Positions 3,502-8,061 of a stretch of DNA of 64,000 nucleotides are shown piece after piece. A model generated the notes under the pieces. It was not told the DNA's origin, made no database searches, and saw nothing but the letters and a program-made list of their open reading frames with translations. The position numbers and the translations under genes are program-made. The stretch lies in the NCBI GenBank assembly GCA_035656255.1, contig DASRSV010000030.1, forward strand, positions 1,338 through 65,337, read 5' to 3'. Source of the DNA: Thermoplasmata archaeon (GTDB lineage Archaea > Thermoplasmatota > Thermoplasmata > Lutacidiplasmatales > UBA184). Positions within the stretch are counted from its first letter, which is position 1, and each line of letters starts with the position of its first letter.

Positions 3502-5886
3502 ATGGTTCGCGCCTACCGAGTCCGCGCCGGCATCCTACGGCTGGAACCGGACGACCGAGAGGCGTTCATCGCTGGACTCCACGGGGCCGTCGCCGCGGCG
3601 TTCGGCTACGGGGTGAGGCTCGGAGTACGGTGGCGCTCCGGACCCCTCGGGGGCGTCGAGCTTCTAGTGCCGGGCGCGAGGGGACTCGCGTGGAGTCGCC
3701 GGTTCCTCGTCCCTCTGTTCTCGCCGGACCGTCTTACCGAGCTCGGACCCGAAGACACGCTCCGGCCGATCGGCCCACCCCAGCGGGAATCAGTACGGGG
3801 ACCCTTGCCCCCGCTGTTGTCGGCGGGGGACGGACACCATGGCTCGTGGACCGAGACGGCGCTGGGTGGGCTCTTCGGGCTCCCGAACGGTATCACGGTC
3901 GATTTCGAGCTCCGTCCGGGTGCCGGCCTCGGGCCGCCCTCGCCCGCGCCCCGTCCGCCGGGGCTGGAGGCGATCGCGGTCCCCGACCATCATCGTCTCG
4001 CGCCGCTGACCGGCTTCGAACGAGAGAGGCGCGACCGGATCGATCTCGCGGTGACCCGGGTCCGGTGGGGGCTGGTCGGTCGCCTCCACTCGAGACTGCC
4101 CGGATCGCTCACCGAACGAGCCGCCGACCTCCTCGGGGCGCACGATGGCGTCGACCTTGGGGGCGGCTTTGCGTTCCGTCGTTGCGGGGGTCGGCGGCGC
4201 ACCGCGGATACCGTGCCGGTCGGCGACGCGACGGTGGCCGCTCTGTTCCCGTTGCCGTGGATACGAATCCCGGAGTCGGCGAGCGGTGCCCCTTCGAACC
4301 CTGTCGGCCCCGAAATCGGCCGGTCGGGAGACGGCGCGGTCTACCGTCTCCCGTGGACACCGGACGAGGGTCGCCATCTTGTGACGGTGGGCGAGACCGG
4401 CATGGGAAAGAGCACGCTGCTCGTTTCGCTGGCACGGCAGGCGCTCGACCGGCACGCCGCCGTTGTGCTCCTCGATCCGGTCGGCGATACCGGCCGCGAG
4501 CTCGTCCGACGACTGTCGCCCGCGCAGGCCGAGCGGGCCACGTGGGTCTCGGCGGCGTTCGCCCCCCGGGGGATCAACGCGCTGAGCGGGATCGGTACGG
4601 CGGAGCCGGGACCCCGGGAGCGGATCGTCGGAGACCTGGTCACCGCGCTCCGCCGCGTCCGCCTCCAACGGTTCCCCGAGTCTTCGTTCTGGGGACCGAG
4701 GATCGAGGAGATGGTTCGGCGAGCGGTGCTCGTGGCGGCGCGGATCCCCCGCGGGACGCTCGTGGAGGCGGAGGGGCTCCTCGATCCAGCCGGCCGCGTT
4801 CCGGTGGGTCTCGCCGGGCCGGAGGCGCAGTCCGCCGCCGCCCTGCGAGCGCGCGTGGTCGGACGCCCGGACGATGTGGAGGGCGCCCGGCGGCTCCTGT
4901 CCGAGATCACGCGGAACGCCGTCCTTCGACCGATGCTCTGCGCTGCGGAGCCCGATTGGACGCTGGCGGGAGCGGTCGCGCCCGATGCGTTGACGGTGGT
5001 GACCGGCGACGCGTGCGAGGTCGGTGAAACGGCGGCGCGATACCTCCTCGCCGTCTATCTGGGGCTGCTGTGGCCCGAGGTCCTGGCGCGGGCGGAGCGC
5101 TCCAAGGTGGTCGTCGTGCTCGACGAAGCCCAATGGTACGCCCACGCGAGCCTCGGTGAGATGCTCCGACTCGGTCGCCGGTTCAATCTCCACGCCTGGA
5201 TCGCCACGCAGTCGCTCGACGCGATGCCCGAGGAGGTGCGGGAGGCGGCGTTAACGAACGCCTCGGACTTTGTCGTCTTTCGCGGGGCGCCGTCCCACTC
5301 CCGAGAGCTGGCCCGCTGGACGAGCGGGCTCACCGAGGGGAGTTTCCTTCGGCTGGGACGCGGTCGCGCGATCGCCTTCCTCGGAAAGGGCGAGCGCGTC
5401 GAACCGCTCGAAGTGACGGTCTGCGGCGAGCCCGAACGACCGGGGAACGAACGTCGGGTGCTCGACCGATCCCGCGAACGCGCGCGGGACGAGCAGGGAC
5501 GGTCGTCACACGTGGAGTCGTCCGACCCGCCGGGAGGATCCGCCGTCGCGTCGGAGTCGTCCCGGGGGGAGACCGAGATCGTCGAGGTCCTGGCGACGGC
5601 CGCTAGCCTCGTCGGTTCGGCGGAGTTCCGAGCCCACACCGCGACCCTCCGAGCGGTCCTTGACGTGAAGGGTGACGCCCTTCGGCGAGTTGGGGCACTC
5701 CTCCAGCGGGAGGGAGTGCTCCTCGCGACGGGCCGGGACTGGATCGGAACGGTGTGGCGCCTCTCGCGGGAGCGCCTCGCGGCCCTCGCTGCGAAGGGGC
5801 CGGCGCCTTCGACGCAAGCCCGCGAGGGAGGGGCGGCCGCGGAAATCGTGCGGCGGGAAGGGCGTGCCGCGGTCGGGAAGCATTAA
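3502..5886 (+). CDS. P-loop NTPase of the HerA/FtsK/VirB4-like (COG0433-type) class with novel N- and C-terminal regions
   Basis: ATG at 3502, with GGAGAGGAG 8 nt upstream. Walker A VGETGMGKSTLL, Walker B VVVVLDEAQ, followed by IATQSL. The N-terminal roughly 290 aa and C-terminal roughly 190 aa have no recognisable motifs. The six-frame ORF begins at 3433, but the RBS favours 3502. Confidence 0.6.
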   Translation: MVRAYRVRAGILRLEPDDREAFIAGLHGAVAAAFGYGVRLGVRWRSGPLGGVELLVPGARGLAWSRRFLVPLFSPDRLTELGPEDTLRPIGPPQRESVRGPLPPLLSAGDGHHGSWTETALGGLFGLPNGITVDFELRPGAGLGPPSPAPRPPGLEAIAVPDHHRLAPLTGFERERRDRIDLAVTRVRWGLVGRLHSRLPGSLTERAADLLGAHDGVDLGGGFAFRRCGGRRRTADTVPVGDATVAALFPLPWIRIPESASGAPSNPVGPEIGRSGDGAVYRLPWTPDEGRHLVTVGETGMGKSTLLVSLARQALDRHAAVVLLDPVGDTGRELVRRLSPAQAERATWVSAAFAPRGINALSGIGTAEPGPRERIVGDLVTALRRVRLQRFPESSFWGPRIEEMVRRAVLVAARIPRGTLVEAEGLLDPAGRVPVGLAGPEAQSAAALRARVVGRPDDVEGARRLLSEITRNAVLRPMLCAAEPDWTLAGAVAPDALTVVTGDACEVGETAARYLLAVYLGLLWPEVLARAERSKVVVVLDEAQWYAHASLGEMLRLGRRFNLHAWIATQSLDAMPEEVREAALTNASDFVVFRGAPSHSRELARWTSGLTEGSFLRLGRGRAIAFLGKGERVEPLEVTVCGEPERPGNERRVLDRSRERARDEQGRSSHVESSDPPGGSAVASESSRGETEIVEVLATAASLVGSAEFRAHTATLRAVLDVKGDALRRVGALLQREGVLLATGRDWIGTVWRLSRERLAALAAKGPAPSTQAREGGAAAEIVRREGRAAVGKH

Positions 5887-5913
5887 TCGTTCGACCCCTG
5901 CTAGTTATCCAGT

Positions 5914-6693
5914 GTGACCGTCCTCGCCGACGCGCTCCCCGCGTCGTCGCCCCCCGCGCTCGAGCGGTGCCGCACCGGCATCGAGGGGCTCGACAACGTG
6001 CTCTCCGGCGGGATCCCCCGCGGGAACACGGTGCTCGTCTCGGGCAACGTGGGGACGGGCAAGACGACGCTGTCGCTCGAATTCCTGGTTCGCGGCGCCG
6101 AAGCCGGGGAGAAGGGTCTCTTCCTCTCCGTGACGGAGGCGTCCGCCCGACTCATCCAGAACCTCGCGACGTTCGAGTTCTTCCGGCCCGAGCTTGTCGA
6201 CACGCGCCAGATCGTCTTCGTCGACATGCCGGTCCTCTACCAGAAGCTCGGCCTGCACCCGGACGAGCTCACCTCGGACGACATCGACGTCCTCGTGCGG
6301 AACCTGGCCGGGCTCGCGAAGGAGGTCGGGGCGAAGCGCGTCGTCGTCGATTCGCTCACGTCGGTCCTGTACCGCATCCGGCAGCCGGAGCGGGTGCGCG
6401 AATTCGTGCTCAAGGTGAGCCAGGCGCTCAACGAGCTCGACTGCACGACACTGTTCGTGAGCGAACTCGGGGGGACGGCGGGTCCGCTCGCGGGCCACGG
6501 CGTGGAGGAGGCGATCGTGGACGGCGTGATCGTCCTCGGCAACACCCGACGGCAGGGGGACATCCTGCGCGTACTCCAGGTCGTGAAGATGCGCGGGACA
6601 CCGCACTCGCGCGCGCAGTACGTGATCGAGCTCAGCCCGATCGGGCTCCTCATGGCGCCCCACCTGAAGGGCGGCCGCTCCGAGGGGGCGTAG
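5914..6693 (+). CDS. KaiC-like/RecA-superfamily ATPase with intact Walker A and B
   Basis: GTG start at 5914, 29 nt downstream of an ATTAAT element. IEGLDNVLSGGIPRGNTVLVSGNVGTGKTTLSLEF is a classic KaiC/RadA N-terminus. Walker B is RVVVDSLT. Confidence 0.75.
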   Translation: MTVLADALPASSPPALERCRTGIEGLDNVLSGGIPRGNTVLVSGNVGTGKTTLSLEFLVRGAEAGEKGLFLSVTEASARLIQNLATFEFFRPELVDTRQIVFVDMPVLYQKLGLHPDELTSDDIDVLVRNLAGLAKEVGAKRVVVDSLTSVLYRIRQPERVREFVLKVSQALNELDCTTLFVSELGGTAGPLAGHGVEEAIVDGVIVLGNTRRQGDILRVLQVVKMRGTPHSRAQYVIELSPIGLLMAPHLKGGRSEGA

Positions 6694-6695
6694 TC

Positions 6696-7277
6696 GTGCC
6701 CGGCCCGGCAGGCGTAGCGGACCGCCTCCGCGCGCTGAGCGGGGGGTCGGCGGTCGCCCTCCGGCTGCGTCCCGAGCAGTACGCCGACCAGTACTTCGCG
6801 GCCCTCAACGCCACCCTCCGCGAGCTCGGGATGGAGACCCAGGGGCAGACGATCTTCGTCTCGGTGACCAACCCGGCGTCGCTCGTCTGGTCGCTCGCCC
6901 AGGCGCTGGACGTCCCGGCCGACCGGATCCAGTTCGTGGACGCGATCAGCCACACGATGATGAACTACCGCGACCCGCTCCCGAACGCGACGTACGTCGA
7001 GAGCCCGCGCATGCTCGAGAACATCATGCTCCGCGTCGAGTACCTGCTCAGGAAGCACCCGAACCCGCGGACGATCGTCGTCGTCGACAGCGTGAACACG
7101 CTCGCCATCCACAACTCGCCCGACCTCCTCTCGGAGTTCTTCCACATCCTGCTGAACAATCTCAAGAGCCGCCAGGTGCTCACCGTCCTGCTCGCCGTCG
7201 CCGACGACGCCAACCCCGACATCGACCAGATGCTCTCTCTGGTCGTCGACGAGACGATCGACGTCGCGGCCGGGTGA
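6696..7277 (+). CDS. KaiC/RecA-like fold protein with a degenerate P-loop (paralog 2)
   Basis: GTG at 6696, 2 nt after the stop of the upstream gene. Walker-B-like TIVVVDSVNTLA is present. The P-loop position reads QTIFVSVTNPAS (no GKT). 193 aa. Confidence 0.5.
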   Translation: MPGPAGVADRLRALSGGSAVALRLRPEQYADQYFAALNATLRELGMETQGQTIFVSVTNPASLVWSLAQALDVPADRIQFVDAISHTMMNYRDPLPNATYVESPRMLENIMLRVEYLLRKHPNPRTIVVVDSVNTLAIHNSPDLLSEFFHILLNNLKSRQVLTVLLAVADDANPDIDQMLSLVVDETIDVAAG

Positions 7278-7284
7278 GCGCTTC

Positions 7285-8061
7285 ATGGTGGTCGACCCAG
7301 TCTTCGGCATCGCCGAGATCGACGAGCCGTTCGTCCCCTTCCTCCCGGTCGGCTGGACCGGGCTCATCTCGGGGTCGACGGGAACGCACCTGCTCGCGAA
7401 GCAGTTCGCCCGCGTCGGGATCGGGACGATGCCGGTCCTGTACTACACGACCTACGAGCGGGTCGCCGACGTCGAGCGCGCGTTCCACGACTTCGGCTGG
7501 GACGCCTCCGGCATGCAGGTGCGCAATCTCGCGGGGGAGTACTACGATGAGGTGCTCGCGCGCGAGCTCGCGATCGCCCGCGTCCGCGACCGCGGGATCC
7601 GCCTGGACGAGCTCAACGGGGAGGACCGCGTGCACGTTCCCCCCCGCTCCTACGACCTCCCCCGTCGCATCGTCGCCGACCTCGCGGCGCTCGACAGCCG
7701 CTTCCGCTTCGTCCTCGACTCGGTCGACTTCCTGCTCGACGTCTGCCCCGCGCCCGAGGTCGTCAACCTCGCCCGGCAGGTGCGCTACCGGGCCCAGGCG
7801 CTCGGCGGCCAAGCGTTCCTCGTCATCCGGCCCGAGATCCACGACAAGCGGACGACCGGGGCGCTCGAGGACCTCAGCGACGTCATCGTCCGTCTTTCGG
7901 CCGAGTCGTCGACCGAGGGGGCCCGCCTGACCGTCGGGATCGACAAGGTACGGAACCACCCGGAACGCGGCCGGCTCGTCCACCTCGGCGTCGGGCCCAC
8001 CGGGCTCACGGTGGCCGGCGCGGACGGTGACCCCAGCGCCACCAAGTCAAAGTCGCGCTAG
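7285..8061 (+). CDS. KaiC/RecA-like fold protein with a degenerate P-loop (paralog 3)
   Basis: ATG 7 nt after the previous stop. GLISGSTGTHLLA occupies the P-loop position and RFRFVLDSVDFLL is Walker-B-like. 258 aa. Confidence 0.55.
   Translation: MVVDPVFGIAEIDEPFVPFLPVGWTGLISGSTGTHLLAKQFARVGIGTMPVLYYTTYERVADVERAFHDFGWDASGMQVRNLAGEYYDEVLARELAIARVRDRGIRLDELNGEDRVHVPPRSYDLPRRIVADLAALDSRFRFVLDSVDFLLDVCPAPEVVNLARQVRYRAQALGGQAFLVIRPEIHDKRTTGALEDLSDVIVRLSAESSTEGARLTVGIDKVRNHPERGRLVHLGVGPTGLTVAGADGDPSATKSKSR

Follow-up and report, generated by a model that had tools for sequence, protein, structure and literature searches.

Why does a gene for a motor-type ATPase stand ahead of three tandem KaiC-like genes in a soil archaeon, and do the four form one system? 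The question is raised by positions 3502–8061 of the window, by which we mean the whole analysed stretch of 64,000 nucleotides, on a contig of a soil archaeon in the Thermoplasmata, order Ca. Lutacidiplasmatales (UBA184). Four plus-strand open reading frames (g1, 3502–5886; g2, 5914–6693; g3, 6696–7277; g4, 7285–8061; all features below lie on the same strand) are separated by 27, 2 and 7 nt, at the positions and spacings that a first-pass annotation had given. The GC3 periodicity of each (0.78–0.87 in g1 and 0.92–0.99 in g2–g4) is as expected in a genome of 70% GC, which marks them as genuine genes. That annotation had read them as a single operon for an undescribed system, with one active and two inactive KaiC/RecA-like proteins in a hetero-oligomeric ring.

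One intact and two inactivated KaiC-like proteins

The gene g2 (5914–6693) encodes an intact, single-domain KaiC-like ATPase of 259 aa, which scores 194.2 bits against Pfam KaiC (PF06745; E-value 2.9e-57, cut-off 26.6 bits) and matches KaiC (2e-53), PH0186 (2e-37) and SSO2452 (6e-21) in the PDB. P-loop, catalytic Glu, Walker B and Lys/Arg segment are all intact: among Thermoplasmatota orthologues, Walker A GNVGTGKTT (aa 44–52; 6043–6069) has G44, G47, G49, K50 and T51 invariant and Walker B RVVVDS (aa 142–147; 6337–6354) has R142, V144 and D146 invariant, and KMRG (aa 225–228; 6586–6597; K225 and M226 invariant) aligns with the Lys/Arg-finger region of KaiC. Going by VKLRG in KaiC CI, we take KMRG to be the equivalent of the KaiC fingers.

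The product of g4 (7285–8061) is a full-length inactivated KaiC-like protein of 258 aa, which passes the Pfam KaiC cut-off (32.7 against 26.6 bits) and aligns with g2 in hhalign at a probability of 97% (E-value 1.6e-11). Its P-loop GSTGTHL (aa 30–36; 7372–7392) lacks Lys and Thr, as first described, and is otherwise kept: GxxGxG stays, including G30 and G33, and His and Leu take the place of Lys and Thr, with other residues in orthologues. A Walker-B-like motif, FRFVLDS (aa 140–146; 7702–7722; F140, R141, D145 and S146 invariant), and the Lys of the Lys/Arg-finger segment are retained.

The divergent g3 (6696–7277), a truncated inactivated protein of 193 aa, has the RecA/KaiC fold with a Pfam KaiC score (21.5 bits) under the 26.6-bit cut-off. 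A degenerate P-loop on a preserved RecA fold had been assigned to it; the fold and a Walker-B-like motif, IVVVDS (aa 127–132; 7074–7091), are kept, but the loss goes beyond Lys and Thr. At the P-loop site, the strand-1/helix-1 junction (aa 19–30; 6750–6785), strand 19–24 passes directly into helix 26–44, and the entire glycine-rich loop is absent. With SVTN in place of SVTE the catalytic Glu is gone, and the protein terminates ahead of the KMRG finger segment, a lack that constrains, and does not define, any ring order. Among 18 diverse family members, D131 and S132 of the Walker-B-like motif are invariant, as are S103 and P104 of a family signature, ESPxMLE (aa 102–108; 6999–7019), in which L107 and E108 are nearly so. 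Inactive though it is, g3 shows the highest conservation among the four genes (68–97% identity) and is therefore under strong selection. As one would expect of an adaptor, g3-like domains also occur in fusions, both at the C-terminal end of giant TPR/SNAP proteins that carry Ig-like domains and with DUF835.

A KaiC fold that has lost the Walker A Lys and Thr characterizes inactivated KaiC ("iKaiC") domains, which PMC5847659, citing Makarova 2017, presents as an established concept in signalling. This combination is found in both g3 and g4 and is conserved across the orthologues of different orders, and the view of the three downstream proteins as KaiC/RecA folds, one active and two inactive, proved sound.

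A conserved trio and an order-specific ATPase

The conserved unit is g2–g3–g4, not all four genes. In about 80 species, g2 and g3 are a median of 3 nt apart (at most 10 nt in 77/77 loci), and g3 and g4 a median of 2 nt (at most 17 nt in 83/83); gaps this close to zero make a hetero-oligomer a reasonable idea. Trio orthologues in other Thermoplasmatota share 52, 35 and 29% identity, with overlapping start and stop codons, and a g2–g3 pair is present in Methanomassiliicoccales. The trio also has a promoter-like element of its own: the TATA-like CATTAAT (5881–5887) lies 33 nt upstream of the g2 start and overlaps the g1 stop codon (5884–5886). Of 85 loci, 61 have an equivalent core, mostly TCTTAGG or CTTTAGG, ahead of an in-frame g2 start, and in 55 of these it lies at −29 to −31 (background frequency 0.009 per 22-nt window); outside Ca. 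Lutacidiplasmatales, four of five loci show a TATA-like element near −31 to −33. CATTAAT is a candidate promoter of a leaderless g2–g3–g4 transcript.

Synteny of the cassette in relatives could be confirmed in about 80 species genomes; within the order it lies among genes for Nop5, fibrillarin, DRG and ribosomal proteins. Since synteny within the order extends over the entire region (Nop5, fibrillarin, DRG, cassette, PAC2), these loci do not count as independent support for a functional connection. In 66/72 species g1 lies beside g2 on the same strand at a median gap of 36 nt, and in 6/72 the gap exceeds 200 nt; unrelated genes intervene in four species, and at the three loci inspected, L076 (not scored in the gap tally), L083 and L089, they encode a beta-helix/NosD protein, an isochorismatase and a Na/H exchanger. 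At locus L087, g1 is fragmentary. Outside the order, g1 was absent beside the trio or pair in 5/5 contexts examined, and four of the five adjoin archaeal type IV pilin genes; g1 and the trio occur together in Ca. Lutacidiplasmatales alone. The earlier remark that no pilus genes lie nearby is correct locally, no pilin genes having been found near the trio in this order, but elsewhere trio or pair usually stands beside them. A four-gene operon is probably not obligate, given the TATA-like box of g2, the intervening genes and the trios without g1.

The product of g1 (3502–5886) itself is a P-loop ATPase of 794 aa, soluble and basic (pI 9.8), that belongs to the HerA/VirB4/coupling-protein branch. 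The motifs first reported as clean are invariant or nearly so in 44 orthologues: Walker A GETGMGKS (aa 297–304; 4390–4413; invariant), Walker B VVVVLDE (aa 536–542; 5107–5127; D541 nearly invariant, E542 invariant) and ATQSL (aa 568–572; 5203–5217; Q570 invariant, T569 nearly invariant). Structural matches to HerA, VirB4 and TrwB, among which neither GspE nor ArlI appears, uphold its placement among HerA/VirB4/FtsK-class translocases, and no transmembrane segment is predicted because the maximum 19-residue hydropathy is 1.31. An N-terminal alpha/beta region (aa 1–290) is followed by the ATPase core (aa ~290–640) with an all-alpha insert, a linker and the C-terminus; as anticipated, the N-terminal 290 aa and the C-terminal 190 aa match no sequence family. 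Within the latter, we predict a winged-helix-like domain (aa ~705–765; 5614–5796) from the strand-helix-helix-strand-strand pattern of the structure model (pLDDT > 90), and R728, G731 and W752 are invariant in the 44 orthologues. The nearest relatives of g1 outside the order are bacterial TrwB-type coupling proteins on mobile elements, neighboured by a Replic_Relax relaxase and a serine recombinase, and bacterial mobile elements are probably its source. In the same genomes, g1 diverges much faster than the trio (30–46% against 57–90% identity).

Comparison with described systems

To call the cassette an undescribed system is too strong, because the association of KaiC-family genes with archaeal type IV pilus loci is published (PMC4858521) and the iKaiC concept is established (PMC5847659). 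Archaeal KaiC-family ATPases and their iKaiC partners have been put forward as hubs of signal transduction (Makarova, Galperin and Koonin 2017, as relayed in PMC5847659), and the locus resembles such systems in its single-domain g2, in the inactivated g3 and g4 and in the fusion of g3-like domains to sensor-like proteins; it seems to differ in being a fixed trio, coupled in translation, in which one paralogue is active and two are inactivated in different ways. With the KaiC/pilus loci it shares the type IV pilin genes beside the module outside the order, whereas in this order the upstream coupling-protein-like ATPase stands in their place. Circadian KaiC proper does not fit g2, a single domain of 259 aa that scores 114 against 546 bits (TIGR02655) and 163 against 408 (NF006799).

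Like ArlH (FlaH) and ArlI, the cassette pairs a KaiC-like protein with a hexameric P-loop ATPase of the FtsK-HerA superfamily, and a KaiC-like ring docked on a motor ATPase and modulating it serves as a working model. The ArlH/ArlI module itself was rejected: g2 reaches 37.3 bits against ArlH NF052589 (cut-off 215), g1 is not a GspE/ArlI secretion ATPase, neither ArlJ nor archaellins were found near the cassette, and archaellum genes are reported absent from the order (PMC9287336). The Ced DNA-import system was rejected likewise (CedB 13.4 bits against a cut-off of 700, CedD 15.3 against 600), so that NCBIfam scores far under the cut-offs go against both modules, which the first-pass annotation had named as possible refutations.

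Two marks of a HerA-NurA type were looked for. A HAS barrel, suggested as a feature to look for in the N-terminal 290 aa of g1, was not seen in the model, which predicts mixed alpha/beta units and no all-beta barrel, and no NurA was found near the cassette. As a type IV coupling protein (TrwB/VirD4), g1 stays below threshold (Pfam TrwB_AAD_bind, 14.6 against 20.5), and T4SS-DNA_transf gave no match above threshold either. Unlike TrwB/VirD4/TraD it has no N-terminal membrane anchor, and its distinct 290-aa N-terminal region and winged-helix-like tail set it apart from these, from VirB4 and from HerA; no relaxase or type IV secretion genes were found near it, its neighbours being DRG and the KaiC-like genes. 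The PADLOC mad8 model matched g1 (2.2e-15) and, weakly and at P-loop level, g2 (9e-05), PADLOC gave no match for g3 and g4, and a MADS defence system was rejected with no other mad gene model matched. As a RadB/aRadC paralogue, g2 likewise falls short of the cut-offs (NF006861, 31 against 278 bits; TIGR02237, 27.6 against 172). Elp456 and the Rad51-paralogue complexes (BCDX2, Shu) are not the closest fold or sequence relatives of the trio, which has no Elp3 or recombination context; the likeness is one of architecture and implies no functional homology.

A putative KaiC-type switch and its alternatives

By analogy with ArlH-ArlI, and with somewhat less than even confidence, we favour a heteromeric switch of KaiC and inactivated KaiC that possibly regulates g1. 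In such a switch, g2, g3 and g4 would be subunits of one KaiC-type assembly, with g2 as the sole catalytic subunit and g3 and g4 as non-catalytic adaptors that shape the ring and offer docking surfaces, and the whole would act as an ATP-driven switch, as proposed for archaeal KaiC/iKaiC signalling hubs. The trio appears to be expressed from a promoter that is its own, leaderless and translationally coupled, and it is inherited across Thermoplasmatota. Related to VirB4, HerA and conjugative coupling proteins, g1 is a soluble translocase of hexamer type, and the trio may bind and gate it much as the KaiC-like ArlH ring docks on the ArlI ATPase. The separate TATA-like box of g2, the absence of g1 next to the trio outside the order, the wide or gene-filled g1–g2 gaps in some species and the faster evolution of g1 speak against the proposal.

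It is possible, if rather doubtful, that the trio is a KaiC/iKaiC unit and g1 functionally unrelated, captured from a bacterial mobile or defence element, fixed in the ancestor of the order and working alone in a role of its own, e.g., DNA translocation or defence. Such a capture agrees with the five contexts outside the order that lack g1, the trio-specific promoter-like element, the g1–g2 gaps that are wide (6/72 species) or hold unrelated genes (L076, L083, L089), the fragmentary g1 of L087 and the TrwB-type relatives beside relaxase and recombinase. Yet most species of the order keep the position, orientation, 36-nt median gap and intact ATPase of g1, no other conjugation, defence or mobile-element genes were found near the cassette, and, because the g1 stop and the g2 promoter element overlap, a terminator would have no space between them.

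That the locus is a DNA repair or recombination module, with the trio as a Rad51-paralogue-like mediator (cf. aRadC/RadB, BCDX2, Shu) and g1 as DNA translocase, we consider unlikely. The SSO2452 (aRadC) match of g2, its weak matches to RadB/RadA models, the basic charge, DNA-translocase fold and predicted winged-helix tail of g1 and the names that databases give to g4-like proteins ("recombinase RecA" and "RAD55 family ATPase") point that way, but g2 is far nearer KaiC than RadA/RadB, KaiC-like archaeal proteins outrank recombinases in the g3 fold search, and no repair genes were found near the cassette, the neighbours outside the order being pilins; those names, moreover, were assigned automatically. 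The tRNA-binding Elp456 complex of eukaryotes is a hetero-hexameric ring built from three degenerate RecA-like subunits, and an archaeal counterpart acting in RNA or ribosome biology seems barely credible here. Pfam Elp4 (PAXNEB) does match g2-type proteins weakly (up to 40 bits in L007), as Elp5 (Iki1) does g3-type proteins, and Nop5, fibrillarin, DRG and ribosomal proteins are neighbours within the order. The window, however, scores under the thresholds (PAXNEB, 16.0 against 28 bits; Iki1, 16.0 against 22.5), KaiC-like folds score higher, in SG8-5 the trio is preceded by a radical-SAM gene that is B12/MiaB-like and not Elp3, and the translation-gene neighbourhood is limited to one order.

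The switch that we favour could be taken further, to an obligate mixed ring (e.g., 2:2:2) rewired from type IV pili to gate a domesticated soluble conjugation-type translocase, though we regard this as distinctly improbable. Such a ring would frame one catalytic KaiC-like subunit with two pseudo-ATPases, an architectural analogue of Elp456 and Rad51-paralogue rings, and the rewiring would mean a chromosomally fixed, KaiC-regulated motor for DNA transfer, uptake or segregation in non-motile soil archaea. KaiC-family proteins are the most expanded and least understood candidate signalling ATPases of archaea, and the locus offers a clear example, found across the phylum, of translationally coupled paralogues, one active and two inactivated in different ways, in which the P-loop-less subunit is under the strongest selection. 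The partners of this one module differ by order, being pilin genes in most orders and a coupling ATPase of bacterial type in the soil order, and comparison across orders could reveal what KaiC-type rings actually regulate.

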